DNA of 64,000 nucleotides from an uncultured Bacteroides sp. GTDB lineage: Bacteria > Bacteroidota > Bacteroidia > Bacteroidales > SM23-62. The notes under the pieces were generated by a model, which worked only from the letters and a program-made list of their open reading frames with translations, had not been told where the DNA came from and searched no databases. The stretch's first letter is position 1, and each line of letters starts with the position of its first letter. The stretch covers positions 1,226-65,225 of the forward strand of contig CAYSJH010000020.1 of assembly GCA_964431315.1 (NCBI GenBank). The letters are read 5' to 3'. A program made the translations under genes and the position numbers. Below, one piece after another: positions 2 to 27,473 of the stretch.

Positions 2-2884
2 GTGGGCTTCGGCGATGGGGTGTACAAAAGCACGGATGGAGGAAAGACCTGGAAGAACATGGGATTGAAATCCTCCGAACACATTGCGAGGATCGTCATC
101 CACCCGGGAAATCCAGATATCGTCTGGGTGGCGGCCCAGGGACCCCTGTGGACCAAAGGGGGTGACCGGGGAGTTTTTAAGTCCACCGACGGGGGAATAA
201 GCTGGAAGAAGGTCCTCGGCAATGACGAATGGACCGGGGCGACAGATATCGTTATTGATCCGGGCGACCCGGATCGCCTGTATGCCGCTACCTGGCAAAG
301 GCACCGGACGGTAGCCGCCTATTTGGGCGGGGGACCCGGTTCAGGGATCCACCGCAGCTCGGACGGAGGAGAAACCTGGGAGAAACTTACCAATGGAATA
401 CCAGACTCCAACCTTGGAAAAATAGGACTGGCGGTATCTCCGCAGGATCCGGCCATCGTTTATGCGGCCATAGAGCTTGACCGGAGAACAGGCGGTGTAT
501 TCATTTCAAGGGACCGGGGAAGCAGCTGGACGAAGCAATCGGATGTTGTCTCAGGAGCCACCGGACCGCATTATTACCAGGAGCTGTATGCATCACCGCA
601 TGCAAAAGGAAAGATTTACCTCATGGATATGCGCGTGCAGGTCTCGGAAGACCATGGAAAAACCTTCAAACCACTTACCGAGGACAAAAAGCACTCCGAT
701 AACCATGCCCTGGCCTTTCGGAAAGATGATCCGGATTATCTCCTTATGGGCACGGACGGCGGGATCTATGAAAGTTTTGACCTGGCCGGGACCTGGAGGT
801 TCATCGACAACCTGCCGGTCACCCAGTACTATAAGCTGGCCGTCGATGACAGTGAACCCTTCTATTTCATTTATGGAGGGACACAGGACAACGGTTCACA
901 CGGGGGACCTTCCCGGACCGATGACAACGTTGGCATTACCAACGAGGACTGGTTCATGATCCTGGGCTCCGACGGCTACCAGACGGCAACCGAGCCCGGC
1001 AACCCGGAGATCGTATACGCCGAGACACAGGAGGGCGGACTCTACCGCATCGACCGGATCACCGGTGAGCAGTTGCTGATCCAGCCGCAACCCGGTGAAG
1101 GAGAGGGACCCGAACGTTTCAACTGGGATTCTCCTATTCTGGTGAGTCCCCATAACCCGGAAAGGATCTACTATGCCTCCCACCGGGTCTGGCGTTCCGA
1201 TGACCGGGGTGACAGCTGGAAACCCATCTCCGGGGATCTTACCCGCAACCAGGAACGCTTTGCCCTTCCCATCATGGGGAGGCAGCAGAGCTGGGACAAT
1301 CCGTGGGACATCGTGGCCATGTCGCAATACAACACGATTACCTCGCTTGCTGAATCCCCGCTCCAGGAGGGACTGATCTATGCGGGCACCGACGATGGAT
1401 TCATCCAGGTGACGGAAGACGGGGGTACAAACTGGCGGAAGCTTGAACTCGGAAGCATAAAGGATATCCCTGCCACCGCTTTTGTGAACGATCTGCGGGC
1501 CGATCTTTTCGATGCCCGAACGGTTTACGCGGCCCTCGATAACCATAAGTACGGGGATTACCGGCCGTTCATACTGAAAAGTACCGATGCCGGCCTGACC
1601 TGGACGTCCATCCGGGGCAATCTTCCGGAAAAACTGATGGTATGGCGCCTGGTGCAGGATCATGTTAAAAAGGATCTCCTTTTTGCGGCTACAGAGTTCG
1701 GCATTTATTTCACCCCTGACGGGGGAAGCAACTGGATCCGGCTAAAAGGGGGACTTCCCACCATATCCTTCAGGGACCTGACCATCCAGAGAAGGGAAAA
1801 TGACCTGGTATGCGCTTCTTTCGGGCGCGGCTTTTTTATTCTTGATGACTATTCACCCCTGAGGGAAGTGACTGCCTCCGGACCAGCAAAAGTGCCGACC
1901 TTTTTTCCCGTTAAGGATGCCCTGTGGTACGTTCCCCGGGAAAAATGGGATGAAGGAGGATCCCGTTATGTGGCTGAGAATCCCTCCTTCGGCGCCAATT
2001 TCACCTATTACTTGCCGGAAAGCCTGTCAACCATAAAATCGGAAAGGCAGAAGATGGAAAAGAAGCTTGATAAAGAGGGAAAGGAAATTCCTTTCCCCGG
2101 GTGGGACCGCCTGGATGCCGAAAAACAACAGAATGCTCCCGAGATCCGCCTGACGATCCGGGATACCAGTGGGAATATTGTCAATACCATCAAGGGAACA
2201 AGTACCAAAGGTATTCAGAGGCAGAGCTGGAACCTTCAGTATGCTTCCAAACTGGGAATTAAACTTGGAGGAGAGACCCCCTCATGGGGTCCGATGGTCG
2301 TTCCGGGAACATACACGGCCAGCCTGTCAAAAATGGTTGATGGTGAAGTGACGGAATTGTCCGGTCCGCAAAGTTTTGAAGTGAAACCACTCCGCAGCGG
2401 AGCCCTTGAGGGCGCTTCCAGTGAAGAATGGACAGGTTTCAAGGACGAAATTGAAAAATTCCAGCAGGATTTCCTCGCCACATCCATGGAACTTGATAAG
2501 TGCATGAAGACGATAACGGCCATGCATGCGGCTGTTCTTAGGGTTGACCGGGGACCGGAAAAACTTGAGTCCAGGATCCACCAGGCGGAAGTGAAACTTC
2601 AGGACATCAGCAAACAGTTGAGAGGAAGTCCCTCTATGAACGAGGTGGAAGAAAAGATATCCCCCACACCGGGACACAGGCTGGCCATTGCCGTATCCGG
2701 ATTATTGACCACCTATGGTCCGACGGATACGCACAAACAATCACTTGAAATCGGGAAATCCGACCTGGCGAGGATAAAGGTGAGGCTTGTGGAAATCGTC
2801 GATTCCGTTCTGCCCCAGCTTGAAAAGGACCTGAAAGATGCCGGTGCACCCTGGATCGAGGGAGAGGGACTGATCAGGCAGTAG
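2..2884 (+). CDS. BNR/Asp-box repeat beta-propeller protein (sortilin/VPS10-like, glycoside-hydrolase-like); 5' end outside window
   Basis: ORF is open to the window edge. It has many S-x-D-x-G-x-(T/S)-W Asp-box motifs (KSTDGGKTWK, KSTDGGISWK, RSSDGGETWE, SRDRGSSWT, RSDDRGDSWK, VTEDGGTNWR, KSTDAGLTWT, FTPDGGSNWI). Stop TAG at 2882-2884. Confidence 0.8.
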   Translation: MGFGDGVYKSTDGGKTWKNMGLKSSEHIARIVIHPGNPDIVWVAAQGPLWTKGGDRGVFKSTDGGISWKKVLGNDEWTGATDIVIDPGDPDRLYAATWQRHRTVAAYLGGGPGSGIHRSSDGGETWEKLTNGIPDSNLGKIGLAVSPQDPAIVYAAIELDRRTGGVFISRDRGSSWTKQSDVVSGATGPHYYQELYASPHAKGKIYLMDMRVQVSEDHGKTFKPLTEDKKHSDNHALAFRKDDPDYLLMGTDGGIYESFDLAGTWRFIDNLPVTQYYKLAVDDSEPFYFIYGGTQDNGSHGGPSRTDDNVGITNEDWFMILGSDGYQTATEPGNPEIVYAETQEGGLYRIDRITGEQLLIQPQPGEGEGPERFNWDSPILVSPHNPERIYYASHRVWRSDDRGDSWKPISGDLTRNQERFALPIMGRQQSWDNPWDIVAMSQYNTITSLAESPLQEGLIYAGTDDGFIQVTEDGGTNWRKLELGSIKDIPATAFVNDLRADLFDARTVYAALDNHKYGDYRPFILKSTDAGLTWTSIRGNLPEKLMVWRLVQDHVKKDLLFAATEFGIYFTPDGGSNWIRLKGGLPTISFRDLTIQRRENDLVCASFGRGFFILDDYSPLREVTASGPAKVPTFFPVKDALWYVPREKWDEGGSRYVAENPSFGANFTYYLPESLSTIKSERQKMEKKLDKEGKEIPFPGWDRLDAEKQQNAPEIRLTIRDTSGNIVNTIKGTSTKGIQRQSWNLQYASKLGIKLGGETPSWGPMVVPGTYTASLSKMVDGEVTELSGPQSFEVKPLRSGALEGASSEEWTGFKDEIEKFQQDFLATSMELDKCMKTITAMHAAVLRVDRGPEKLESRIHQAEVKLQDISKQLRGSPSMNEVEEKISPTPGHRLAIAVSGLLTTYGPTDTHKQSLEIGKSDLARIKVRLVEIVDSVLPQLEKDLKDAGAPWIEGEGLIRQ

Positions 2885-3590
2885 CCCGCCTGAATACCCT
2901 GGCCACCAGGATCCCGTTCACGATCAGTACGGTCCAGTTTATTGTAATGACGGCCACTTCAAAGAGGTATTCACGCCCGATCCCATATAGGATCGAGATC
3001 AGGGCGAGCAACAGCAATGCAAGGATAAAACCGCTGATGAAGATCCAGCGGATTGCCCTTTCCAGGCTACTGGCCCGTGCAAAGACAAGGCCCAGGAACA
3101 GGAAAGAAAGGCTCATCATTAAAAAACCGATTTCTTCAAGAGCTATGAACAACCCATGCGGATTAAACTGGGTCATCAGGGCTATTCCCTCCGTTTCTCC
3201 GTTTAACAGGCTGGGCTGAATTACGGTTACCTGCAGGAAATAGTTTGTCACCAGGATAACAGCCGAGATCAGGGCGAAAGCGGATCCGGCCTGGCTGAAC
3301 AATTTATTCCCGCCGGGGGCAAAATGATGAATGCTGAGACTGAATACGACAAAAACCACATTCAGCAGGATTGCCGGATACATCCACAGGTAATCCCTTG
3401 GAAAGCGTAATTCAATCCCCGTATAGGGATAACTGAAACAATCCCCCGGGCAAAAGGGACCGGAAAGTGGTGGGGTAAAGAAAGCCATCCCGAGGGTCAC
3501 AATGGTTATTAAAGCCATTGCGACGGATACATAAAATCCAAAGAGGTGTACTGACTGAGTTCCAGCATCCTGATTAGTTGTCATATTCAT
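2874..3590 (-). CDS. integral membrane protein, about 6 TM helices, unknown function; last gene of the apr-qmo operon
   Basis: 238-aa ORF. Its ATG (3590-3588) overlaps the qmoC stop TGA (3589-3587) as ATGA. Six long hydrophobic segments. CxxxC pair (FCPGDCF) in the first predicted loop. I recognise no family. Confidence 0.6.
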   Translation of the reverse strand: MNMTTNQDAGTQSVHLFGFYVSVAMALITIVTLGMAFFTPPLSGPFCPGDCFSYPYTGIELRFPRDYLWMYPAILLNVVFVVFSLSIHHFAPGGNKLFSQAGSAFALISAVILVTNYFLQVTVIQPSLLNGETEGIALMTQFNPHGLFIALEEIGFLMMSLSFLFLGLVFARASSLERAIRWIFISGFILALLLLALISILYGIGREYLFEVAVITINWTVLIVNGILVARVFRRATA

Positions 3591-4663
3591 GTTGGCTTAG
3601 TGGTTCCGATTAAAAGGAGAGACAACGTACGATAAAGGAAATGGGCGAACCTGGTGTATGGATAATAAAGGATGATGATCCAGACCAGGATCAGGTGAAA
3701 CAGGTAGATATGGTAGGCATGGCTCCAGTCCAGGAAGCGCGCCGCCTCAACGAGTATACCGGTAACAGTCAGCAGCCAGAAGGAAAGCAGGAAGAACCAG
3801 TCCGCATAATTACTCCTCAGGGTATTCCGTTTCAGCAGCCTGTTCATGATCATCAGGGTTGATCCGGTGAAAAGCAGGAGTGCCCCCGCGTTGCCTGCTA
3901 TCTTGACCGGATTGAGGAAACCGAGCGGGTAATTAAAGAAGATTGTTGAAAGGATCGCAAAAAAGGTGACGAACAGGAGTAGTATAAATCCCCAGAAAAC
4001 AAACAGGTGGGAAAGGGACCGGCTTTTCTCTTCCGTGCATTGTCTGAAATCCCTGTGCCACAGGATCCTGCCAATTATCTTCAACCAGCGGCCGGATGCC
4101 GGTGCCTCCGGAATGCCTGATGCGCTCTTCCAGAAACTTTTTAGTCCCGCAACAGCCCCGATGGTCGAAAGAATGAACAGGGCTGTAAACGAACCGTTCA
4201 GCCAGCCATGGGGAAAGAATTTGGAATAATCGACGGGTCCCTCAGGGATATGCAACGTTCCGGCCATCAGGATGATCAGGAGTATGGTCAGCATCGGGAA
4301 GAGAACAACAAGCGGCAGAAAGGCCGGCCTCTGCATCCAGCGTGCAATGAAGCGGGGCCTGGAGTAATGGATGATCTGTTCCTGACGGAGGGCGGCCATG
4401 ACATCGCCGGGACTTACCCCACGGGGACAGGAAACCGTGCAGTCGCCGCACTGGTGGCAGGTCCATACGTACGGATCGGCCATGAGCCGGTCACGCATCC
4501 CCCAGGCAGCCATGATCATCTGCCTGCGGGGAAAGACATCCTGGTCAGCCGACAAAGAGCAGGATGCCGTACAGGCCCCGCACTGCATGCAGGTTGTCAG
4601 CTGCGAACCGCTGGCAGCCTGCAGTTTTTCAATGAATGCAATATCGGGACTGACTTCGATCAT
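3587..4663 (-). CDS. qmoC: quinone-interacting membrane-bound oxidoreductase subunit C (HdrC-like 2x[4Fe-4S] domain plus HdrE/NarI-like membrane domain)
   Basis: N-terminus has two CxxCxxCxxxC motifs (CMQCGACTASC, CHQCGDCTVSC), followed by multiple TM helices. Abuts the qmoB stop with zero gap. Sits in the aprBA-qmoABC order. Confidence 0.85.
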   Translation of the reverse strand: MIEVSPDIAFIEKLQAASGSQLTTCMQCGACTASCSLSADQDVFPRRQMIMAAWGMRDRLMADPYVWTCHQCGDCTVSCPRGVSPGDVMAALRQEQIIHYSRPRFIARWMQRPAFLPLVVLFPMLTILLIILMAGTLHIPEGPVDYSKFFPHGWLNGSFTALFILSTIGAVAGLKSFWKSASGIPEAPASGRWLKIIGRILWHRDFRQCTEEKSRSLSHLFVFWGFILLLFVTFFAILSTIFFNYPLGFLNPVKIAGNAGALLLFTGSTLMIMNRLLKRNTLRSNYADWFFLLSFWLLTVTGILVEAARFLDWSHAYHIYLFHLILVWIIILYYPYTRFAHFLYRTLSLLLIGTTKPT

Positions 4664-6808
4664 CTACATATCTTTAAAGGGATTGGGTCCAATGGATTCA
4701 ATCGTTTCAAGATAATCATCGATGATCTCCGGCAGCCTGTGGTACTCATCGATCTCGAGGAATACCGTTTTAATCCTTTCCGGTTCGAGCATCATGGTCT
4801 GCAGGGTTTGCTGTATGTTTTCCGACCGGGTTTCCATCAGTTCGCTCCCCGTAATGAAATGGCACTGGTAATCCTCTCCAGGTTTGCACCCGATCTGCAT
4901 AATGCCGTCGAATCCCGCCGACAGAGCATCGGAGAGCCAGATCTTATTGATCGAACCGATGCAGCGCACGGGGATGATCCTTAACCAGGGACTGATCCGG
5001 TGGCGGTGAAAGGCCGCCAGGTCGAAGGCCGGGTAAGCATCATTCTCGCACACAAATGCCAGCACTCTGGGTTTTTCCTCCAATTCATCCGGTATGGGGA
5101 TGGATTTGATCATGGAAGAGATGGCATGGATAGAATAATTGTCGAAGTTAATGATCCGTTCCGGACAGGAACCCATGCAAATGCCGCAACGCCTGCATCG
5201 TGCTGGATTGGGCAGGGGAGTTCCCTTCTCGTTCTCATCATAGGTCCCGAAGGGACATTCTTCCGTACATCTCTTACAATCCGTGCACCGCTGCAGGCTT
5301 AGGACCGGGTAGCTCCGGTCCCCCGGCCTCGGGTGAACGGCTTCCCCCCGTCTTACAGCTTCTATGCACTGGATCGCCTTTACCACCGCTCCCCCGGCAT
5401 CCTCCATGCAGTCCTGGATACCCTGCGGCGTTCTGACCGCACCTGCAGCATATATGCCTGTGCGCTGAGTCTCGTATGGAAAACAGATGAAATGGGAATC
5501 CGGGAAACCGTATTTTCTTTCCGGTAATCCTTCGCCCTTCCGGTAAAGCAGGTGCAGGTCCTCCGAACGGTTGGGCTCCATTCCCGTTGCCGCAACAACC
5601 AGGTCCGCCCGGATGGAGAGCGGTTCACCCAGCAGGTTGTCCCCGATCGTTATCCTGAGGCTGCCGTCGTCCAGTTCCTCCACCCCGGATACTTCCCCCT
5701 TTGTAAGGAAAATGCGGTTGTCGCCCTGGACCTGGCGGTAAAAATGCTCGTTCCGGCCGGGGGTCCGGATGTCCCTGTAAACAATGAATACATTTGTTTC
5801 AGGGTATTTACGGCGTATGTAAAGAGCCTGCTTAAGGCTTGTCAGGCAGCAAACATTGGAACAGTAGGGGAGATGTTTTTCATCCCTTGACCCGGCGCAC
5901 TGGATAAAGACGACGTTTTCGGGAGGTTTCCCGTCAGAGGGCCGGAGGATCCCGCCCTGCTTTGCCATGGTTTCCAGGTCGGCCTGGGTAATCATGTTTT
6001 CATGCCTGCTGAATCCCAGATGCTCCAGCCTGGAAGCATCATAGGGTTTCCAGCCGATGGCGAGGATAACGGACCCGACCCTGCATTCGGAATTTCTGCC
6101 GTTAATCCTGAGCGTAACATGAAATTTGCCGGGTTCCCCCGAGATTGCCGAAACCGTGGAATTTTTATGAACGGTGATCAGTCCCGAGGCCTCCAGTTCC
6201 TCCAGCTTTTCATCCAGGAAATAACCGAGATGGGTTTCCCGGCTTCCGGACACCGGGATGATGTCGTGCCAGTGGTTGAGCCAGCCCCCCAGCCGGTCCT
6301 CTTTCTCGACCATTACGACCGAATAACCGGCCCGGGCCCCTTCGAGGGCGGATTGTATTCCCGTAATACCGCCGCCGAGGATCAGGATATCGGATTCCGT
6401 TCCATCCGGGATATAGGGATCCGGAAGGCCGGAAGCCGCAGTCCATGCGATCCCCATCCGAAGGTAGTCCTCTGCTGCCAGCTGGGTGTCCTCGTGGCCG
6501 GGCTCCATGACCCAGGCAACGCCTTCCCTGAGATTCACCCTCTCGGTCAAAATATTGCCGAACTTCAGTGTTTCAGGATTGTGGCGGGGGGAACAGCCTG
6601 CAATCACCAGTGAATCCAGCAGGTGCTCAGGGATCTCATCATTGATTTTCAGGTGGGCTTCGGCACTGCACAGGCAGGGACGTACCTGGCATTGCTTTAC
6701 TGTTGGGTACTCACCTGCAACGGCGGACAGCTTTGCGGTGTTGAGGCTTTCACCGATCCCGCAGCCGGTACAAATGTACACGCCTATGTTTTTCGATTCT
6801 TTAGCCAC
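4664..6808 (-). CDS. qmoB: quinone-interacting membrane-bound oxidoreductase subunit B (HdrA-like flavoprotein with ferredoxin and MvhD-like C-terminal regions)
   Basis: 714 aa. N-terminal GVYICTGCGIGE, FAD fold ILILGGGITGIQSA...VEKEDRLGG, ferredoxin motifs CTDCKRCTEECP and CRRCGICMGSCP. Position between qmoA and qmoC. Confidence 0.9.
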   Translation of the reverse strand: MAKESKNIGVYICTGCGIGESLNTAKLSAVAGEYPTVKQCQVRPCLCSAEAHLKINDEIPEHLLDSLVIAGCSPRHNPETLKFGNILTERVNLREGVAWVMEPGHEDTQLAAEDYLRMGIAWTAASGLPDPYIPDGTESDILILGGGITGIQSALEGARAGYSVVMVEKEDRLGGWLNHWHDIIPVSGSRETHLGYFLDEKLEELEASGLITVHKNSTVSAISGEPGKFHVTLRINGRNSECRVGSVILAIGWKPYDASRLEHLGFSRHENMITQADLETMAKQGGILRPSDGKPPENVVFIQCAGSRDEKHLPYCSNVCCLTSLKQALYIRRKYPETNVFIVYRDIRTPGRNEHFYRQVQGDNRIFLTKGEVSGVEELDDGSLRITIGDNLLGEPLSIRADLVVAATGMEPNRSEDLHLLYRKGEGLPERKYGFPDSHFICFPYETQRTGIYAAGAVRTPQGIQDCMEDAGGAVVKAIQCIEAVRRGEAVHPRPGDRSYPVLSLQRCTDCKRCTEECPFGTYDENEKGTPLPNPARCRRCGICMGSCPERIINFDNYSIHAISSMIKSIPIPDELEEKPRVLAFVCENDAYPAFDLAAFHRHRISPWLRIIPVRCIGSINKIWLSDALSAGFDGIMQIGCKPGEDYQCHFITGSELMETRSENIQQTLQTMMLEPERIKTVFLEIDEYHRLPEIIDDYLETIESIGPNPFKDM

Positions 6809-6817
6809 CTCTGTGAT

Positions 6818-8110
6818 TCATTGCAGTACATTGATTACAAGGCCTGTGGCCTCCCTGACTGAGGCAGCGACGTCCTTTGGATCGGCGCAGCAGCCCCCTG
6901 CGGCGTAGCCTTCTTCAAGGGCTTCCCGGATGATGAATCCATCCCGGTCAAGTTCCATTCCCGCAAGGGCAGGTGCAATGGGCACGATACCCGTCGCCAG
7001 GATGACCATATCATAGGAATTGCGAATCTTCCGTCCGGACAGGATGTCTTCCGCTTCCAGGACCGGCCTGCCTGTGTCCTTGCCAGGATTCTCCCCCTCG
7101 CGGGTCGATTTATCCGCTTCCAGGTTGATCCCGGATACTTTGCCTTTGATCAGGCAAATGCGCTCATGGTTTTCCACTTTCCTCAGAAAGTCCTCGTTCC
7201 TCCCTGAAACCCTCAGGTCAATGTAGTAGATATCCGCCTGGTTCTGAGGATCCTGTTCGGTGAAGTACAGGGCCTGCTTCAAGGAAGCCGAACAACAGAC
7301 TGCGGAGCAATAGGGCAGATGGTTTTCATCACGGGAACCGGCGCACTGGATAAAGGCTATCCTGCGGGCAGGTTCCCCGTCGGATTGCCTGAGTATCAGG
7401 CCCCCGGTGGGACCGTTGGGGGCTCCCAGCCTTTCCATCATGACATTGCTGAGGATGTCGGGGGACTTCCCCCAGGAGTATTCGGCCAGTTTTTCCGGGT
7501 TATAGGGGCTCCATCCCGTGCAGAAAAGAACCGTTCCAACATTTAACTCACGGGTGCTGCTTTCCGCCCCGAGGTTTATGGCCCCGTAACGGCAGGCGGG
7601 TACGCATTTCATGCAGCTGTCTTTCAGGCAGGCAGTATCATCAAGATAATACCGGTCCGGGTAGCTCAATTCATGGGGCAGGTCGATCGCCTTATGTACG
7701 GTCAGCCCGTAGTTGAAGGGATCCGGGGATTCAACGGGACATACGACGGTGCATTCGCCACAGGCTGTACAGGCTGAAGATACGTATTCCGGTTCGCACC
7801 TAAGGCTCACCCTGAAATCTCCGGCGGTACCTGAGATCTTTTCCGCGGTGGCCGAAGTGATCACCTCGATGCGGCTGCTGTCGCGGATCCGTCTGAAATT
7901 GATCTCGAGTCCGCAGTAAGGGGGACAAAGTTTAGGGAAGTACTCATTCATTCGGGCTACCTGTCCCCCCAGGTACGGCAGCTTTTCCAAAAGGTACACC
8001 CTGCATCCCGTTTCCGCAGCTTCCACGGCAGCGGTGATGCCGCTGATTCCCCCGCCGATGATGAGCACCGATTTTTCGGTTTTCCTGGTATGGTTGTTCT
8101 GGTCCTGCAT
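6818..8110 (-). CDS. qmoA: quinone-interacting membrane-bound oxidoreductase subunit A (HdrA-like FAD protein)
   Basis: FAD fold VLIIGGGISGITAAVEAAETG...LEKLPYLGGQ, then NEYFPKLCPPYCGLEIN, typical of QmoA/HdrA. The ORF track starts at 8152, which overlaps aprA by 17 nt. The internal ATG at 8110 (MQDQNNH...) avoids the overlap and is preferred. Confidence 0.88.
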   Translation of the reverse strand: MQDQNNHTRKTEKSVLIIGGGISGITAAVEAAETGCRVYLLEKLPYLGGQVARMNEYFPKLCPPYCGLEINFRRIRDSSRIEVITSATAEKISGTAGDFRVSLRCEPEYVSSACTACGECTVVCPVESPDPFNYGLTVHKAIDLPHELSYPDRYYLDDTACLKDSCMKCVPACRYGAINLGAESSTRELNVGTVLFCTGWSPYNPEKLAEYSWGKSPDILSNVMMERLGAPNGPTGGLILRQSDGEPARRIAFIQCAGSRDENHLPYCSAVCCSASLKQALYFTEQDPQNQADIYYIDLRVSGRNEDFLRKVENHERICLIKGKVSGINLEADKSTREGENPGKDTGRPVLEAEDILSGRKIRNSYDMVILATGIVPIAPALAGMELDRDGFIIREALEEGYAAGGCCADPKDVAASVREATGLVINVLQ

Positions 8111-8135
8111 ACTTTGACATCGATGACCGGCCGGA

Positions 8136-10031
8136 TCAGTCCACCAGGTCAATTACCTCCCTTTTCATCATTTCCCACTGACCGGATCCTGGATCCCAGC
8201 GGCAGTTGGCAAAGCATTTCCACTCATCCTCCGCCAGCCCGGGGAAATCACTCCTGAAATAATACCCGGGCCAGCGCGTCTCCTCCCGGAAGAGCATGGT
8301 GCGCATATGCGATTCAGCCTGCCAGACCCGGTGAACATTTTCCCAGCAGCGCATCAGTTCATGGGTGTTCCCGGCAGCCAGGCTGGCGATGTCTTCCTTA
8401 AGCATATGCAAATGTTCCAGTCCTTTCTCAAGCAGGGGGGCGGAGGTCCTGTACCCGCTCGAGACCCCGCCGGCATACTCGTCCATTATTTTCTGGAGGC
8501 GGAACATGAACATCTGCGGACGGATGTAATTCGGGTTGATATCCGGGTCCTGGGTGTATCCTTTATGGGTCTCAAACAGATCGAGGGGTTTCAGGATGGA
8601 CTGCTTCAAGGCAAGGACGGTTTCTTCCGCAGCCGGGGGCAGATCGGGATGGTCAACGCAGAAGGCTGCGGCGGATTTACCCGCAATACGTCCCTCGGTA
8701 AAGGAGCCGGATGAGAACTTGTGACTGGATGCCCCGGATGCATCCCCGGCTGCAAACAGGCCGCGTACCGTGGTCATATTTGGGTAGCCCCATTTATAGC
8801 CTTCGGGTGCGAGATCCTCGGGACCGCTGACCCATGCACCGGAAGCCCCGGAATGGGAGCTTATGAAATAGGGTTCACAGGCAGAGATCTCCGATGGTTT
8901 TTCCTCGGGATTGATGTTCATGGATGCCCAGAGAAGGGCCTGGCTGATCGTCATGTCCAGGAAATCCTCCCAGGCCTCCTTTTCCAGTTCCTTAAGTTTG
9001 CGCCTGGCCTCCTTTTCGTCGGGAATGGACTCCACGATCTTTTTAATGGCTTCTTCCGTCCGCATATAAATGGGACCTTTCCCTTCCTCGATCTCGAGCA
9101 TCATCAGGTAATTCCTCAGGTTGGCCGGCGTCGGTTTTACATTCCCGTAAGGGGCCCATTTCTCCAGTTCGGCCGCCCGTGTCTGCATGTAATTCTCGCC
9201 GAGTGCATTGGTGGCCTCTGCCTGGAAAAGCAGGAACCAGGCCCCGACCGGACCGTAGGCATCCTTGAAACGGACCGGTACGAAGCGTACCTCCTGGCAG
9301 GTCATTTCCGCACCGGCCTTCAGCGTGAAATAAGCACTTGCCCCGCTGTTGAAGGGAGGGTACCAGGAACGTCCGAGTCCCTCTCCAACGGACTTCGGTC
9401 TGAACACATGCACCGCGCCTCCCATGGCGGCAAGCACGCTTTTTGCCCGGAAAACGTAGATCTTGTTTTCCCTCACGCTGAAACCGATGGCCCCCGTACA
9501 GCGGTCTCCTTCAACAATGGGATCGGTTATGAAGACCCTTTCGAAATACTGTCCCCTTTCACCCAGTTCAGCCAGGGCATTCTTGGCGGCTTCCGCCACG
9601 ATGGTCTTATAGGATTCCCCGTGGATCATGATCTGCCAGCGCCCCTCGTTCACGTACTTCCCTTCCTCGTCCCTCCAGATCGGTAGTCCCCATTTCTCGA
9701 ACAGGTGCACCGACGAATCCACATGCCTCCCGATGTTCGCCACGAGATCATCCCGGGCTATGCCCATCAGGTCATTCTTTACATATTTAACATAATCGGC
9801 AAGGGTATTTTTACCCTCTTTCAGTCCCAGGTACATATTGATGGCCGACAGTCCCATTGCCACGGCGCCGGACCGGTCCATCGACGCCTTGTCTACCAGT
9901 GTGACCCGGAGCTTGTACTTCTTAGCCCAGTGGGCGGCCTCCCAGGCTGCTCCACAGGCAGCCATGCCTCCCCCAAGGATCAGGATATCGGTCTGAACTT
10001 CAACGGTTTCGAAATTATTTGCAATGCTCAT
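8136..10031 (-). CDS. aprA: adenylylsulfate (APS) reductase alpha subunit, dissimilatory type
   Basis: 631 aa. N-terminal FAD fold DILILGGGMAACGAAWEAA, fumarate-reductase-family flavoprotein architecture. Lies directly downstream of aprB and upstream of qmoABC. Confidence 0.92.
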   Translation of the reverse strand: MSIANNFETVEVQTDILILGGGMAACGAAWEAAHWAKKYKLRVTLVDKASMDRSGAVAMGLSAINMYLGLKEGKNTLADYVKYVKNDLMGIARDDLVANIGRHVDSSVHLFEKWGLPIWRDEEGKYVNEGRWQIMIHGESYKTIVAEAAKNALAELGERGQYFERVFITDPIVEGDRCTGAIGFSVRENKIYVFRAKSVLAAMGGAVHVFRPKSVGEGLGRSWYPPFNSGASAYFTLKAGAEMTCQEVRFVPVRFKDAYGPVGAWFLLFQAEATNALGENYMQTRAAELEKWAPYGNVKPTPANLRNYLMMLEIEEGKGPIYMRTEEAIKKIVESIPDEKEARRKLKELEKEAWEDFLDMTISQALLWASMNINPEEKPSEISACEPYFISSHSGASGAWVSGPEDLAPEGYKWGYPNMTTVRGLFAAGDASGASSHKFSSGSFTEGRIAGKSAAAFCVDHPDLPPAAEETVLALKQSILKPLDLFETHKGYTQDPDINPNYIRPQMFMFRLQKIMDEYAGGVSSGYRTSAPLLEKGLEHLHMLKEDIASLAAGNTHELMRCWENVHRVWQAESHMRTMLFREETRWPGYYFRSDFPGLAEDEWKCFANCRWDPGSGQWEMMKREVIDLVD

Positions 10032-10076
10032 AAATCAGTTTTTTCATTATAACCGGCCGGGACCTGATCCGATCCA

Positions 10077-10514
10077 TCAGATTTTTTCCAGTTCTTCCAG
10101 TCCCGTTGAAGCAGGCTCGGTGCGGAGCAGGGGACTCTTCAGGTCATCCGTTGCGGTCCCGAAACCGGCATCCGGTTCTGCAGTCCCCTCCGGGGTTGTC
10201 CTTGTCGGGAACTTGAACCGCTTTACCTGGCCGTCCCTGAATTTTACCGACCACATGATCGCATCGGAACTTCTCAGGGGCTGAACCGCGCCGCCGAGGG
10301 GCATAAAATCGGCATAACCCCTGACCTCGATGGCCTGGGTGGGACAGATCTTTACGCAGTTGTAACATTCCCAGCACATTTGAGGTGCGCGGTTAATGGC
10401 CTTATTGCTTTGCTTGTCGAGGACCATAAGATCGTTCGGGCAGATGTACTGGCAGGCCGTCCTGTCCAGTGCCTTACATCCGTCACATTTATCGGTAATA
10501 ACAAAACTGGGCAT
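10077..10514 (-). CDS. aprB: adenylylsulfate (APS) reductase beta subunit (2x[4Fe-4S])
   Basis: MPSFVITDKCDGCKALDRTACQYICPNDLM...CWECYNCVKICPTQAI...RGYADFMPLG is the canonical AprB N-terminus. The track start at 10541 adds 9 aa and lies inside the predicted -7 box, so the ATG at 10514 is preferred. Confidence 0.92.
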   Translation of the reverse strand: MPSFVITDKCDGCKALDRTACQYICPNDLMVLDKQSNKAINRAPQMCWECYNCVKICPTQAIEVRGYADFMPLGGAVQPLRSSDAIMWSVKFRDGQVKRFKFPTRTTPEGTAEPDAGFGTATDDLKSPLLRTEPASTGLEELEKI

Positions 10515-10538
10515 GATGCTAGTCCTTGGTGATGCGTA

Positions 10539-10546
10539 CAAACATA
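10539..10546 (-). promoter_or_regulatory. candidate Bacteroidota -7 promoter box (TATGTTTG = TAnnTTTG) for the apr-qmo operon
   Basis: Minus-strand TATGTTTG about 25 nt upstream of the aprB ATG at 10514. Matches the Bacteroides-type -7 consensus TAnnTTTG. I saw no clear -33 TTTG. Confidence 0.45.
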
Positions 10547-10583: not shown

Positions 10584-10619
10584 ATGCCCCGGTCAGAATA
10601 TGGAATGCCCCGCTCAGAA
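10584..10619. repeat. two 16-bp direct repeats (ATGCCCCGGTCAGAAT / ATGCCCCGCTCAGAAT), 20-bp period, upstream of aprB
   Basis: Read directly: 10584-10599 and 10604-10619, 15 of 16 identical. About 70-105 nt upstream of the aprB start. Overlaps the last codons and stop of the upstream 151-aa ORF. Confidence 0.7.
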
Positions 10620-11069
10620 TCCGATCATCCAGAGGATCCGGTCCTCATCGATGCAGAAATCGACAAGTTCCAGGATTTCCCTGCTCACGCTGACGAGTTG
10701 TTTGTGGTACTGTGTCCAGTGATCGGTCCAGTTTTTATCCGAACTGACCAGGGCAAGCAGGAATTCCTTGCCGAGCACCTTTCCTGTAATAAAATTCTGA
10801 AAATCAGATAGTTTTTTGATCTGCTCAAGCCTGGCAAGTTGGGTCAGCAGGTTGTTCCGCAGGGGGATTATAAACCGTGTGTTATACCTGGTTGGAACGT
10901 AGTAATCATAAAGCTGGTTGGCCTTCTCGAAACACTGGGTGAAAAGGTTGAAAACCACGGCATCCATGTAGCGCGATTCAGGATCGCATTTGTTATAGGT
11001 TTCTTCCGTGCCGGTAATGTTGAGCTCGACGAAATTCAGATCCTTGTAATGGTAGAGTGCTAACTTCAT
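10614..11069 (-). CDS. hypothetical protein (151 aa), same strand and immediately upstream of aprB
   Basis: Clean ORF with ATG start. No recognisable motifs. Looks slightly more AT-rich than its neighbours. Confidence 0.5.
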   Translation of the reverse strand: MKLALYHYKDLNFVELNITGTEETYNKCDPESRYMDAVVFNLFTQCFEKANQLYDYYVPTRYNTRFIIPLRNNLLTQLARLEQIKKLSDFQNFITGKVLGKEFLLALVSSDKNWTDHWTQYHKQLVSVSREILELVDFCIDEDRILWMIGF

Positions 11070-11163
11070 GATGATAATCCTGATCGGAGCTAAGTTATAA
11101 ATTTTGTTTAAAAAGTTGCCTGATTTTTTACTTACTTTTATCCCGGAAAATCAGCAAAGCGTG

Positions 11164-12666
11164 ATGAAAAAGATCATAGGGGGGCTTTTTGAACAAACTT
11201 TCGGTTGTCCCGCCACAAGGTTTGAAACACTGCCGGGGGCGGGATCTCATCGCAGGTATTTCAGGCTGGAAGGGAAGGGCAATAGATGCATTGCTGTATA
11301 CAGTCCGGATCCGCTTGAGACCAGGGCCTTTCTTGATTTTACAAGGCATTTCGGGCAACTCGGGCTTCATGTTCCGCAACTGCTGGCGGAGGATTCCGGC
11401 AGGGGAATTTACCTTCTTCAGGATATGGGGGACCGGACCCTTAAGGATGAAGTTGACCGCAGCAGGAGGGATGGGGACTTCCCCGAACGGATACCCCCTT
11501 TATACCGGCAGGCTCTCATGCATTTGCTGAGGTTCCAGGTGGAGGGGCACGCGGGACTGAACTATTCCGTCTGCGTGCCCCGGCCGGAGTTCGACCGGCA
11601 GTCGATGATGTGGGACCTTAACCATTTCAAGTATTATTTCCTCAAACTGCTCGGAATACCCTTCGACGAACAGGCCCTGGAAGATGATTTCGGAACCTTT
11701 ACCGGTTTCCTCACCGGCGCTGAATCAAAATTCTTCCTGTACAGGGATTTTCAGTCCCGCAACATTATGATCCTTGATAATGATCTTTATTTTATTGATT
11801 ATCAAGGGGGAAGGAAAGGGGCACTGCAATATGACCTGGCTTCGATCCTGTTCGAGGCACGGGTCGACCTGCCACCCAGCATGCGGGATGAAATGCTGGA
11901 ATTTTACCTGGAACAGCTTCAGGATAAAACAGGCATCCGGCCATGGGAATTTAAAAAACATTACTGGGGTTTTGTACTGGTCCGCATCCTTCAGGCCATG
12001 GGGGCATACGGCATCCGGGGCATCGTTGAGAACAAGCCCCTTTTCCTGCAAAGCATTCCTTTCGGGATCAGGAACATCGGCTGGCTGCTGGATAACTCAC
12101 TCATCCCCGACAAACTGCCCGAGCTGACGGCCTGCCTTCACAGGATCTGCAGCCTGGAAGAATGGAAGCAGGGCGTGGGACCTGAAAAGAAGGAAGGGTA
12201 TAATAAAACTGGAAAACCGGGAAAAACGAAAAAACCGGGAAAAACGGGAGGATTTAAGGAGCAGGATAGACCTGGAGAGCTCCGGGTCCTGATAAACAGC
12301 TTCTCCTATAAAAGGGGATTGCCGAGGGACCTCAGCGGGAACGGCGGTGGATTCGTGTTTGACTGCAGGGCCCTTCCCAATCCGGGCGGGGAAGAGAAAT
12401 ACCGTTCCTTCACGGGACTCGACAGGGAAGTGATGGATTTCCTGGAAGGGAAAGATGAGGTGCGTGTTTTCCTCGACAGGGCCTTCTCACTGGTGGAACA
12501 GTCCGTTGCAGAGTACCGCTCCCGGGAATTTGACCGCCTGATGGTCAGCTTCGGGTGTACAGGCGGCCAGCACCGCTCGGTTTATTGCGCCGAGCGGTTG
12601 CAGGAGTTACTCCGGGACAGGCTGAATGTTAAAACTTTGCTGGTACACAGGGAGCTTGAAATATAA
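11164..12666 (+). CDS. fusion protein: AmgK-like anomeric sugar kinase (APH/phosphotransferase fold) plus RapZ C-terminal-like domain
   Basis: The N-terminal ~340 aa have AmgK/APH hallmarks (GSHRRYFRL, DFQSRNIMI, IDYQGG). A Lys/Gly/Pro linker follows (TGKPGKTKKPGKTGG). The C-terminal ~125 aa match the RapZ C-domain pattern (LINSFSYKRGLP...FVFDCRALPNPG...TGLD...VSFGCTGGQHRSVYCAERL). The track start is TTG 11104; ATG 11164 is preferred. Confidence 0.75.
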   Translation: MKKIIGGLFEQTFGCPATRFETLPGAGSHRRYFRLEGKGNRCIAVYSPDPLETRAFLDFTRHFGQLGLHVPQLLAEDSGRGIYLLQDMGDRTLKDEVDRSRRDGDFPERIPPLYRQALMHLLRFQVEGHAGLNYSVCVPRPEFDRQSMMWDLNHFKYYFLKLLGIPFDEQALEDDFGTFTGFLTGAESKFFLYRDFQSRNIMILDNDLYFIDYQGGRKGALQYDLASILFEARVDLPPSMRDEMLEFYLEQLQDKTGIRPWEFKKHYWGFVLVRILQAMGAYGIRGIVENKPLFLQSIPFGIRNIGWLLDNSLIPDKLPELTACLHRICSLEEWKQGVGPEKKEGYNKTGKPGKTKKPGKTGGFKEQDRPGELRVLINSFSYKRGLPRDLSGNGGGFVFDCRALPNPGGEEKYRSFTGLDREVMDFLEGKDEVRVFLDRAFSLVEQSVAEYRSREFDRLMVSFGCTGGQHRSVYCAERLQELLRDRLNVKTLLVHRELEI

Positions 12667-12795: not shown

Positions 12796-13515
12796 ATGAA
12801 AGCAATGATACTTGCAGCGGGCCTGGGTACCCGGCTCCGGCCGCTTACCAACGACCTGCCGAAAGCGCTGGTCCCTTTCAAAGGGGTACCACTCGTCGAG
12901 AGGATCATACGGAACCTTGCATACGCCGGGATTGATCACATCATTGTCAACGTCCATCACCATGCCGAACGGGTGATCGATTTCATCCGTCATCTGGATG
13001 TCCCGGGCACCAGCCTGTACATTTCGGATGAACGTGAAATGCTTATGGATACCGGTGGTGCCCTGCTTAAAGCCAGGGAGTTTTTCACAGGGGAGGAAGA
13101 TTTCCTTGTGCATAATGTGGATGTCATAACCAACCTGGATATTTCTGCTCTTATCCTGGCCCACAGGGGAGGAGATTCCATGGCGACAATCGCCGTTAAG
13201 AAAAGGCCTACCTCCCGGTCCCTCCTTTTCGATAACGAGGGATATCTTTCCGGCTGGAGGCAGAATGAGACCGGGGAGGTCAGGATCGTCCGGAAGAAAG
13301 CGGGGGCCCTGGAAGACTACGGGAACAGCTGCGTCCAGGTAATCAGCCGTGAATTCTTCTCGCACTATCCCGATACCCGGGTCTTAAACCTGACGGAAAT
13401 GTATCTCGACCTTGCCGTAAAATACCTGATACAGCCCTTTATCCATAATGAGGATTACTGGTACGACCTTGGCCGGTATGAGAACTATCTAAAAGCAGAC
13501 AAGGAAGTCTTTTAA
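12796..13515 (+). CDS. murU: MurNAc-alpha-1-phosphate uridylyltransferase-like nucleotidyltransferase
   Basis: N-terminus MKAMILAAGLGTRLRPLTNDLPKALVPF is the sugar-1-P nucleotidyltransferase signature. Lies downstream of an AmgK-like kinase, as in the amgK-murU recycling pair. Confidence 0.7.
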   Translation: MKAMILAAGLGTRLRPLTNDLPKALVPFKGVPLVERIIRNLAYAGIDHIIVNVHHHAERVIDFIRHLDVPGTSLYISDEREMLMDTGGALLKAREFFTGEEDFLVHNVDVITNLDISALILAHRGGDSMATIAVKKRPTSRSLLFDNEGYLSGWRQNETGEVRIVRKKAGALEDYGNSCVQVISREFFSHYPDTRVLNLTEMYLDLAVKYLIQPFIHNEDYWYDLGRYENYLKADKEVF

Positions 13516-15076: not shown

Positions 15077-15241
15077 GATCATGTCCGGGGCTGCCTGGGA
15101 GGCAAGAATAGGCTGAAGGTTCAGCATGCATGAAGGAATAAAGTGAAAACCGGGCAGGAACGGATTGAACCGGACAGGAAAAAGTTGAATGCAGGATTTG
15201 AACAGGTTGGAGACCGGACACGAAGTAAAAACTTACTGAAA

Positions 15242-15949
15242 ATGAAAGAACATCTGATCGAGCAGCTAAATAAAAAATGGGAAGGGAAGCCACCGGAGGA
15301 GGTCCTTGGCTATTTCCTTAAGGAATACAAGGGAAAGATCATCCTTGCCTCAAGCATGGGTGCAGAAGACCAGGTACTTACCAGGATGGTCGCGGATGCG
15401 GACCGGGACACCCGGATCTTCACGCTGGATACGGGCAGGTTGTTCCAGGAGACCTACGACCTCATACAGCGGACCAACGAAGAGTACGGCCTTAACATCG
15501 AGGTTTATTTTCCCGATTCCGGACAGGTGCAGGACATGGTGGCCAGCAAGGGGATCAATCTGTTTTACAGAAGCATCGGGAACCGTAAATTGTGCTGCGA
15601 TGTTCGTAAGAACCAGTCCCTCAAACGCGCCCTCGCCGGCATGGCAATGTGGATATGCGGGCTCAGGAAGGACCAGACCGTAACCCGTTTCTACAATAAG
15701 CTGGTAGAATGGGATGAGAAACACAGGCTTATGAAGCTTAATCCCCTGATAAACTGGACGGAAAAACAGGTCTGGCAGTACATCAGGGAACATGATATCC
15801 CTTACAATGTGCTGCATGACAGGGGATATCCGAGCATTGGCTGCAAACCCTGCACCCGAGCCGTCCAGCCGGGGGAGGATTCAAGGGCCGGCAGGTGGTG
15901 GTGGGAGAATGCGGAAAACAAGGAATGCGGCCTTCACAACAGCGAGTAA
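15242..15949 (+). CDS. cysH: assimilatory adenylylsulfate/phosphoadenylylsulfate reductase, thioredoxin-dependent, Fe-S-cluster type
   Basis: CysH family with CC...CxxC cluster ligands (RKLCCDVRK, SIGCKPCT) and a C-terminal ECGLH motif. The track start at 15143 adds 33 aa with no family resemblance, so ATG 15242 (MKEHLIEQL) is preferred. Confidence 0.85.
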   Translation: MKEHLIEQLNKKWEGKPPEEVLGYFLKEYKGKIILASSMGAEDQVLTRMVADADRDTRIFTLDTGRLFQETYDLIQRTNEEYGLNIEVYFPDSGQVQDMVASKGINLFYRSIGNRKLCCDVRKNQSLKRALAGMAMWICGLRKDQTVTRFYNKLVEWDEKHRLMKLNPLINWTEKQVWQYIREHDIPYNVLHDRGYPSIGCKPCTRAVQPGEDSRAGRWWWENAENKECGLHNSE

Positions 15950-16031
15950 CCCTCGCGGGAACACGACTCCACGGAAATAAGCAAGCCTGGAAAGGGGATC
16001 CCTGACCCCGGACTTCGGTCAGAAACCTCTG

Positions 16032-17362: not shown

Positions 17363-17469
17363 AGGATGACAGGGATCGGAATCAATCGTGTTCGGATTCG
17401 GTGTCAGGATGTAATGCCATGATGCGGTTTTCCCCAGGATGACAGGGATTGGGATCAATCGTGTTCGAT
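17363..17469. repeat. ~34-bp direct repeat pair duplicating the 3' end, stop codon and start of the 3' UTR of the LRR gene
   Basis: 17363-17396 (aggatgacagggatcggaatcaatcgtgttcgga) versus 17436-17469 (aggatgacagggattgggatcaatcgtgttcgat). Offset between copies is 73 bp. The second copy contains the real stop of the 670-aa ORF. Confidence 0.75.
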
Positions 17470-27433: not shown

Positions 27434-27473
27434 CACGGGCTGTTAATGACAACAGCAGAAACAGGACAGGAAG

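Follow-up and report, generated by a model that had tools for sequence, protein, structure and literature searches.

The stretch of DNA analysed here, hereafter the window, comprises 64,000 nucleotides of contig CAYSJH010000020.1 (positions 1,226 to 65,225, forward strand) from the assembly GCA_964431315.1 of an uncultured Bacteroides sp., and it encodes a complete module for redox chemistry between adenosine 5′-phosphosulfate (APS) and sulfite. The module consists of the APS reductase AprBA and the membrane complex QmoABC. Its genes occupy positions 3587-10546 of the minus strand in the order aprB-aprA-qmoA-qmoB-qmoC, and the sequence and comparative evidence indicates that they almost certainly form a functional, natively integrated operon with its own Bacteroidota-type promoter box. 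Taken alone, the identity of the operon and its nativeness to the host are claims that we make with very high confidence. We further propose that this native operon belongs to a Bacteroidales-specific lineage and runs oxidatively, as a route of sulfite oxidation that would proceed without Dsr, a statement that as a whole, direction included, we judge to have an even chance of being correct.

All six minus-strand open reading frames (ORFs) listed in a preliminary description of the window were recovered, comprising the five genes of the module and a sixth at 2874-3590. The aprB gene (10077-10514, within an ORF that opens at 10541) encodes the 145-residue beta, or electron-transfer, subunit of APS reductase, and aprA (8136-10031) encodes the 631-residue catalytic alpha subunit, which carries flavin adenine dinucleotide (FAD). 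These are followed by qmoA (6818-8110, with a possible alternative start at 8152), which encodes a 430-residue HdrA-like FAD and iron-sulfur (Fe-S) flavoprotein, and by qmoB (4664-6808), whose 714-residue product joins an HdrA-like flavoprotein to a C-terminal MvhD/FlpD domain. The last gene, qmoC (3587-4663), encodes the 358-residue membrane subunit, in which an HdrC-like domain for two [4Fe-4S] clusters precedes a cytochrome-b-type membrane domain. As previously described, qmoB and qmoC meet with zero gap, the TAG of one running directly into the ATG of the other. For AprB, AprA and QmoC we took the NCBIfam equivalog cut-offs as the standard of identity, and all three proteins exceed them: AprB scores 195.4 bits against TIGR02060 (cut-off 135.65; PF12139, 115 bits, E 1.8e-33), AprA 876 bits against TIGR02061 (cut-off 641.75; E 1.4e-263) and QmoC 323.7 bits against the qmoC equivalog NF038018 (cut-off 300). 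The model library holds no dedicated QmoA or QmoB profile. Against the HdrA2 model, QmoA reaches 313.5 bits, far under the cut-off of 1100 and with coverage of the FAD core only, and QmoB reaches 406 bits, also under that cut-off. QmoA contains FAD and Fer4 Pfam domains, and the C-terminus of QmoB holds PF02662 (FlpD) at residues 582-707 with 123.7 bits. In related loci qmoA always lies between aprA and qmoB, and the five-gene order is kept in all Bacteroidales loci long enough to show it as well as in many loci of other phyla, with identities across the Bacteroidales loci of 72-93% for AprB and 52-81% for QmoB. This conserved synteny ties the Qmo proteins to Apr and sets them apart from methanogen-type HdrA that lacks an Apr association. 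Similarly, fumarate reductase and L-aspartate oxidase are ruled out for AprA, as the SdhA, FrdA and NadB models give 19-193 bits against cut-offs of 450-1200. The NCBIfam and Pfam models, together with the conserved residues, therefore support the earlier assignment of a complete and bona fide aprBA-qmoABC module.

The residues that matter for catalysis and electron transfer are intact. AprA aligns with the Archaeoglobus fulgidus enzyme (1JNR_A) at E 1.6e-229 in a HMMER alignment, and 13/13 listed residues are identical between the two: L70, N74, Y95, E141, W234, R265, V273, G274, L278, R317, D361, H398 and H446. The list and its A. fulgidus numbering are those of PMC2211403, where these residues bind the isoalloxazine, the sulfate, the phosphate and ribose, and the adenine. 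AprB aligns with 1JNR_B at E 1.9e-58, and 8/8 cluster cysteines are matched along with Trp-B48 (the W of MCWECYNC), which serves as an electron relay (PMC2211403). The cysteine motifs quoted for AprB in the preliminary description, and the two CxxCxxCxxxC motifs quoted for QmoC, are both present. In QmoC these are C25/28/31/35 and C69/72/75/79, which are 94-100% conserved across homologues. The same subunit has five hydrophobic segments above threshold. Among 52 homologues H219, H323, H341 and C209 never vary and H203 reaches 75% conservation, a pattern from which we infer that QmoC probably binds haem.

Our comparison with other genomes places the operon firmly in its host group. The apr loci and comparison loci from other genomes are labelled L001-L098 and are named below only where they need to be told apart. 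The Bacteroidota host proposed earlier, here an uncultured bacterium of sediment, is borne out, as the closest loci come from Bacteroidales metagenome-assembled genomes (MAGs), some of them with proteins carrying type IX secretion signal domains encoded in the flanks of the apr genes, and TAnnTTTG boxes are placed before gene starts. The nearest AprA proteins, in Bacteroides sp. SM23_62 and relatives, are 87-89% identical to that of the window, and a further group of about 20 loci, several on contigs of megabase size and from MAGs labelled Bacteroides, Bacteroidales or Bacteroidota, is 74-79% identical. In a neighbour-joining (NJ) tree of 83 AprA sequences, drawn from the 80 most similar genomes, 27 sequences including that of the window form one clade in 100/100 bootstraps, and 26/27 members carry the MAG labels Bacteroidales, Bacteroidota, Bacteroides, Bacteroidaceae or Rikenellaceae. 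Mean AprA identity is 78% inside the clade and 68% to the rest, with outside sequences ranging from 67 to 74% and none above 74%. The closest of these outside sequences are mostly from groups that contain sulfate reducers, namely Desulfofundulus, Desulfobacterota, Acidobacteriota, Zixibacteria and Gemmatimonadota. Two taxon labels sit oddly with the tree. A Chlorobiota-labelled MAG (L015, DAOVJU010000110.1) has its AprA inside the Bacteroidales clade, and in the Bacteroidetes-labelled MAG YP1.bin85 (L077, JAKASW010000183.1) the AprA is sat-linked and clusters with Ignavibacteria. Such cases reflect either loose labelling or separate acquisitions.

We weighed whether the module might be a misassembled or misbinned fragment from Deltaproteobacteria or Chlorobi, or a very recent import that has yet to adapt. 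The exact AprA protein is present on 18 contigs, and six contigs, each from a different Joint Genome Institute (JGI) sample, match the window over 9-17 kb at 99.9% identity and are collinear across both ends of the operon. Because six independent assemblies reproduce both junctions, an assembly chimera, which the preliminary description had raised as a danger to its claim, is excluded. A comparison of codon and tetranucleotide usage, which the same description had suggested, places the operon inside the range of its flanks: the GC content at third codon positions (GC3) is 0.64-0.67 and the codon-usage distance 0.08-0.15, both within the spread of the flanking housekeeping genes, and the tetranucleotide correlation is 0.935 against 0.907-0.968 for other windows of 7.7 kb. 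The overall GC content of the operon, at 55-56%, is slightly over the window mean, and the operon of one distant relative is bracketed by ParE toxin pairs and transposases, both of which could be read in favour of an import. Set against these are the six collinear assemblies, the composition shared with housekeeping neighbours, a host-type promoter box, an AprA that falls in the Bacteroidales clade at no more than 74% identity to anything outside it, and a flanking backbone kept in divergent relatives. The six assemblies and the native composition together rule out a chimera or recent transfer, and we regard the probability of an artefact or recent import as negligible. Horizontal acquisition had been offered earlier as one of two explanations for the operon; if meant as a recent event, it is contradicted by the native composition, the Bacteroidales AprA clade and the occurrence of the same backbone in divergent lineages.

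The promoter box in question, TATGTTTG, is a TAnnTTTG element of the Bacteroidota type at 10539-10546 on the minus strand, where it would act as a -7 box 25 nucleotides upstream of the aprB ATG, and it is the putative promoter of aprB. TAnnTTTG is not over-represented in the window, with 22 matches against 24.75 expected. The placement of the matches is uneven, as 8/22 copies fall 19-95 nucleotides upstream of a same-strand gene start (binomial P ~2e-6), zones that make up 4.35% of strand positions. Searches around the operon for intrinsic terminators and sigma-70 promoters returned none above shuffled expectation.

The operon also bears the mark of continued use. Against close relatives, the apr and qmo genes have nonsynonymous divergence (dN) of 0.06-0.25, saturated synonymous divergence (dS) and dN/dS ratios (omega) of 0.03-0.09 where computable (0.03-0.04 for aprA), which indicates strong purifying selection on the operon genes. 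This bears on the suggestion that the operon is a decaying relic, an inherited remnant that no longer works in this lineage. Such a view could draw on the loss of the operon from the same site in a related genome (L098) and on a qmoC of only 240 residues in L087. It is countered by five reading frames that are all intact, catalytic and cofactor residues that are all conserved, the low omega values with saturated synonymous sites, and identical proteins across many samples, so that we give it very little credence. The short qmoC (15649-16371) comes from the nearest relative with a long contig, whose AprA is 87% identical, and comprises the Fe-S domain only; it may reflect a frameshift or a long-read assembly error.

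The chromosomal address of the operon is shared among the nearest relatives. The window, L001 and L003 have the common order PMT-o173-mnmA-cysH-nhaA-murU-amgK-orf151-aprBA, and the more distant L024 (AprA 74%, MnmA 69%) has mnmA-cysH-murU-amgK-aprBA. In other lineages the operon adjoins cysH, murU, GHL10, namZ or murQ-like genes. In L098, the mnmA-cysH-murU-amgK backbone and orf151 are kept and apr is missing, so that related genomes differ at one and the same site in whether they have the operon. The simplest history would be a single old acquisition in Bacteroidales followed by vertical upkeep, local rearrangement and occasional loss. In addition, to look for a functional partner encoded beside the operon, all ORFs in the flanks of 22 loci were clustered and those that recur were annotated. 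This yielded only cysH and genes of housekeeping or peptidoglycan recycling (amgK, murU, namZ, a murQ-like SIS protein, GHL10, mpl, purA, fur and relA), and none of the recurrent ORFs encodes a sulfite exporter, a sulfite reductase, a desulfonation enzyme or a sulfurtransferase. One locus has a more mobile setting. On the 6.2-Mb Bacteroidales contig of L088 (= L004), ParE-toxin/antitoxin pairs stand on both sides of apr-qmo (8686-9215 and 17461-17993), Y1 and DDE transposases lie nearby (4285-5447; 20306-21586) and a 23S-rRNA-IVP family gene separates aprA from qmoA. The ParE and transposase setting hints that the operon may be mobile within the order.

The window operon can be set against several known systems. 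The green sulfur bacterium Chlorobaculum tepidum, whose group belongs to Bacteroidota in GTDB, has a sat-aprBA-qmoABC set with the same five Apr and Qmo subunits, QmoC included, and exchange of electrons with menaquinone. In Chlorobi sat lies within the apr-qmo cluster, and an oxidative role of Apr/Qmo in C. tepidum was reportedly shown by Rodriguez et al. in 2011. The sulfite-to-sulfate route of this organism is the functional model that we favour for the window operon. The two differ in that the sulfite of Chlorobi is supplied by oxidative Dsr, whereas in the clade of the window sat is unlinked and the relatives are without Dsr. The Apr/Qmo gene set of Chlorobi has been described (PMC10504309). 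Sulfate reducers such as Desulfovibrio vulgaris and A. fulgidus (1JNR, 3GYX) share with the window the gene order and the active-site and cluster residues. Furthermore, the Qmo of the window is of the canonical type I in the sense of PMC10504309, with a QmoC that passes the equivalog cut-off and a QmoB with an MvhD-like tail. In contrast to the sulfate reducers, the clade of the window has no known DsrAB, DsrC or DsrMKJOP partner, its sat is not adjacent and its AprA forms a branch of its own. Closest of all are the loci of Bacteroidales MAGs (SM23_62; members of the GTDB families UBA5072, UBA10428 and PUMT01 in the Zodletone spring; MAGs of Lake Tobar and of Microflora Danica), which are the window's own family at 74-89% AprA identity and have the same gene order, with the same flanking backbone in the closest members. 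The species of the window differs from these other loci by an extra passenger membrane gene after qmoC, and it shares with its nearest relatives an orf151 between amgK and aprB, whereas distant Bacteroidales members have other flanks. A further parallel is the Dsr-less apr/sat set of aerobic marine heterotrophs (SAR11), which Meyer and Kuever reportedly proposed in 2007 to oxidise sulfite derived from organosulfur compounds. Such sets resemble the window in combining APS reductase with a heterotroph that lacks Dsr, with sulfite presumably from organic sulfur, but pair a lineage-I AprBA with AprM and use oxygen as the final acceptor, in place of QmoABC and anoxic habitats.

The genes that would accompany APS reductase where sulfate is reduced or sulfur oxidised were sought in the window and in its relatives. 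In agreement with the preliminary description, the window yielded no sat or dsr: neither tblastn nor a scan for Sat motifs matched a sat gene in the 64 kb, Pfam scans of 50 of the larger ORFs returned no sulfur gene other than cysH, and the window scans gave no asr or sulfonate-degradation genes. The separation of sat from apr extends to the whole clade: within 10 kb of aprA, a Sat-like ORF occurs in 37/55 loci outside the clade but in 0/26 clade loci and not in the window either, which makes the unlinked sat a trait of the Bacteroidales clade. The linkage of sat to aprBA seen in canonical sulfate reduction is thus absent from the window and the 26 clade loci. The window likewise departs from the contiguous sat-aprBA-qmoABC cluster with oxidative Dsr of the Chlorobi type, although it may still work alike. 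In related genomes sat can lie on other contigs. Table S2 of the Zodletone study lists four Bacteroidales MAGs with aprAB and qmoABC, of which 3/4 have sat and 0/4 have dsrAB, dsrC or dsrMKJOP (PMC9040765). Zod_Metabat.810 (UBA5072) has sat and asrAB and no dsr; Zod_Metabat.768 and Zod_Metabat.1236 (both UBA10428) have sat and neither dsr nor asr; and Zod_Metabat.777 (PUMT01, 72% complete) has no sat, dsr or asr (PMC9040765). The first of these is the source of locus L022, whose AprA is 76% identical to that of the window. Independently, a dsrAB census of 950 genomes names only Chlorobia and Kapabacteria among Bacteroidota (PMC10591310).

The preliminary description made no mention of the one other sulfur gene of the window, cysH, which lies on the plus strand at 15143-15949 (probable start near 15242), 4.7 kb away. 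Its product is an Fe-S-type APS reductase, assimilatory and thioredoxin-dependent, which scores 260.6 bits against TIGR02055 (cut-off 235.3) and contains the CC...CxxC and ECGLH motifs. Because an APS-reductase-type CysH is encoded nearby, AprBA is not needed for sulfur assimilation. The cysH gene is found near apr in at least eight Bacteroidales loci, including L001, L003, L024, L016 (about 21305) and L018, and in L005 (8600-9331) and L006 it shares the strand of aprB and is the gene immediately upstream.

Our working model for the module takes the subunit roles of Qmo from PMC3333476. AprA, through its FAD, would catalyse the interconversion of APS plus two electrons with sulfite plus AMP, and AprB would relay the electrons through its two [4Fe-4S] clusters. 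QmoA and QmoB, the HdrA-like flavoproteins, would connect AprB to QmoC, which in turn would use its Fe-S and haem-b membrane domains to exchange electrons with the menaquinone pool. In the oxidative direction, APS would be formed by adenylylation of sulfite inside the cell (derived, for instance, from organosulfonates or thiosulfate), menaquinone would take up the two electrons and hand them on to fumarate reductase or another quinol oxidase, and the unlinked Sat would turn APS and pyrophosphate into ATP and sulfate. We consider this direction, as in green sulfur bacteria, the most likely one, because sat is unlinked, relatives have sat elsewhere but no Dsr, and a CysH is already present. Menaquinol (-75 mV) alone cannot drive APS reduction (-60 mV) against the membrane potential (PMC3333476). 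As sulfate activation costs ATP and menaquinol is insufficient, a reductive role without an energy-yielding sulfite reductase appears unfavourable. In line with the oxidative direction, AprAB and QmoABC in one Bacteroidales genome from spring water have been read as reverse sulfite oxidation (supplementary text of PMC9040765).

Several points weigh against sulfite oxidation as the role of the operon. The AprBA enzymes of sulfate-reducing prokaryotes and of sulfur-oxidising bacteria are indistinguishable by sequence and structure and do not reveal direction (PMC2211403), and a reading of catalytic direction from the sequence was dropped on this ground. The assignments of sat, dsr and asr, of the sulfite source and of the quinol sink come only from relatives at 76% AprA identity. 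In the habitats, which are sulfidic and anoxic, the electron acceptor that a sulfite oxidiser needs is only putative. Transcripts of sat, apr and qmo in Zodletone sediment derive mainly from other phyla (PMC9040765). The AprA tree is an NJ tree of the 80 most similar genomes, with no references from Chlorobi or the lineage of sulfur oxidisers. Finally, the asrAB of one related MAG and the position of cysH directly before aprB in L005 and L006 could indicate APS reduction.

These last observations belong to a reductive alternative, in which the unlinked Sat would activate sulfate and AprBA-QmoABC would reduce APS without Dsr and so provide fermentation or respiration with an electron sink. Sulfite formed in this way would be handled by AsrABC or an assimilatory-type sulfite reductase, or be exported and react with sulfide. 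Such a role would fit the closest AprA sequences outside the clade, which are largely from groups that contain sulfate reducers, and the combination of QmoABC with QmoC, an arrangement typical of sulfate reducers (PMC10504309). It would also fit the asrAB found beside sat, apr and qmo in one related MAG, the same-strand cysH upstream of aprB in L005 and L006, which suggests co-regulation with APS reduction, and the naming of Bacteroidota among lineages with sulfate-reduction capacity (PMC9040765). However, 3/4 related MAGs have neither Dsr nor Asr, assimilation is already served by CysH, and the ATP cost of sulfate activation together with the menaquinol limit would result in a net loss of energy unless sulfite reduction conserves it. 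We therefore see APS reduction as possible but on the unlikely side. A broader proposition, that supposedly fermentative sediment Bacteroidales use Sat-AprBA-QmoABC for an energy-conserving sulfur metabolism free of Dsr, which at the extreme would amount to sulfate respiration through AsrABC or another sulfite reductase, is one that we consider clearly improbable.

The recurrence of cysH near apr in at least eight Bacteroidales loci, operon-like in L005 and L006, raises another possibility, namely that AprBA-Qmo and CysH together act as an APS/sulfite shuttle that couples the thioredoxin and quinone pools, or that Apr serves as a valve that removes toxic sulfite, with only a small part in conserving energy. 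We know of no precedent for a thiol-quinone shuttle based on APS and sulfite, which counts against this idea. Moreover, the linkage to cysH is equally explained by backbone synteny, since L098 has cysH-murU-amgK without apr, and a membrane complex of five genes under strong purifying selection suggests a flux that is quantitatively important. The reversibility of the AprBA reaction (PMC2211403) would permit a shuttle, but we think either version highly unlikely. Sulfite oxidation by Sat and AprBA-QmoABC remains the reading that we prefer.

The preliminary description held that the phylum is not classically credited with this module, which is true only in part. Classical apr surveys do omit Bacteroidetes (PMC5099947), but among the classical carriers are Chlorobia, which GTDB assigns to Bacteroidota. 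Moreover, a table from 2022 lists the four Bacteroidales MAGs with aprAB and qmoABC (PMC9040765), and NCBI already names such proteins. Since NCBI annotates the module and PMC9040765 tabulates it, its presence in Bacteroidales is not unprecedented. The host order is known as one of fermenters and polymer hydrolysers, and apr in Bacteroidetes goes unmentioned in the publication of SM23_62 (PMC4411801). Full-text literature searches found survey tables only and no paper dedicated to the Apr-Qmo of Bacteroidales. The enzyme system itself is canonical and represents no new kind of enzyme. Our analysis contributes the recognition of a Bacteroidales-specific clade with a fixed genomic address, the finding that its sat is unlinked, and the demotion of two neighbouring hypothetical genes from the module.

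Among the polymer degraders of anoxic sediments, Bacteroidales rank with the most abundant, and models usually treat them as fermenters. This conserved, selected and quinone-coupled APS/sulfite module is carried by at least 25 species-level genomes of the order, apparently without Dsr. If sulfite oxidation is its role, the turnover of organosulfur compounds or thiosulfate would be tied to the regeneration of sulfate and to extra ATP. If APS is reduced, these organisms would be sulfate or APS reducers invisible to surveys that use dsrAB as the marker. In either direction, classical sulfate reducers or sulfur oxidisers would wrongly be credited with part of the aprA counts from sediment amplicons and metagenomes. 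The lineage thus offers a clean and testable case, with a fixed address, for working out the Dsr-independent role of Apr-Qmo in an order of fermenters.

The sixth gene of the preliminary description (2874-3590, minus strand) encodes a 238-residue membrane protein in which the six hydrophobic segments reported earlier were counted, and it overlaps qmoC by the four nucleotides ATGA. This overlap suggests that it is probably co-transcribed with qmoC. Its inclusion in the module did not hold, as it is absent from all other apr loci (homologues at 0/80) and its family resides in unrelated accessory islands. The protein has no Pfam or NCBIfam match, and its AlphaFold model, which consists of long helices with a predicted local distance difference test (pLDDT) score of 84.8, has no fold match in the PDB (E >= 0.2). 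The family is large, with over 1000 homologues that are 55-65% identical and come from Chlorobi, Chloroflexota, Marinimicrobia, Methylomirabilis, Bacteroidetes, an uncultured bacterium (ACD_81C) and others. In three sampled contexts it lies in toxin-antitoxin, transposase or restriction-modification islands and never beside apr. A role as a Qmo accessory subunit was ruled out on the strength of the 80 apr loci and these islands, and the gene is, by comparative evidence, a passenger that neighbours the conserved module and is not a component of it. Conservation of the family, to which loci L089-L095 also belong, is unusually high across distant phyla, with 39 invariant columns in 30 sequences, and some members carry the UniRef label DUF998.

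On the other side of the operon lies orf151 (10614-11069, minus strand), which the preliminary description also left unmentioned. It encodes a conserved hypothetical protein of 151 residues directly upstream of aprB and diverges from amgK. The protein is 62-66% identical and the gene in the same position in L001, L002, L003 and L087, and the family is small, with only 107 clusters. Its AlphaFold model has a pLDDT of 87.2, and the best PDB match, YfbM at E 0.12, assigns no fold. In L096, L097 and L098, genomes without apr at that site, orf151 adjoins amgK-murU, and it therefore belongs with that backbone. The same three loci rule out a role as an Apr-specific regulator or chaperone. In two of them, about 4 kb from the orf151 site, an 831-residue fusion protein for sulfur trafficking is encoded (L096, 13336-15831; L097, 13420-15915), which joins a pyridine-nucleotide-disulfide oxidoreductase to rhodanese, TusA and DsrE-like domains.

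The backbone genes that mark the conserved site are an amgK-like kinase gene (11104-12666) and a murU-like nucleotidyltransferase gene (12796-13515), both on the plus strand. This pair flanks the apr operon in L001, L003 and L024 and flanks orf151 without apr in L096-L098. The 520-residue product of the former is a fusion of an AmgK-like APH-family kinase with a RapZ C-terminal domain (PF22740, 116.9 bits). This combination also stands beside a murU-like gene in L081, L096, L097 and L098 and is conserved in this group of Bacteroidales.

Farther from the operon, the window holds three other features, all on the plus strand. Two tandem aconitase-family genes (47456-49369 and 49396-51168; 637 and 590 residues), with a ketopantoate-reductase-like gene after them and an opposite-strand transporter of the major facilitator superfamily before them, may form a small cluster for the utilisation of organic acids. 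At 23364-30335 there is an AddAB-like pair, comprising a UvrD-like helicase (1034 residues) and a PD-(D/E)XK nuclease protein (953 residues); between the two lies a radical-SAM gene, its start overlapping the stop of the helicase gene. Finally, a 583-residue protein encoded at 30372-32123 combines pentapeptide repeats with a C-terminal two-helix transmembrane ion-channel domain (PF13576 and PF07885), and its gene has a TAnnTTTG box 26 nucleotides upstream.

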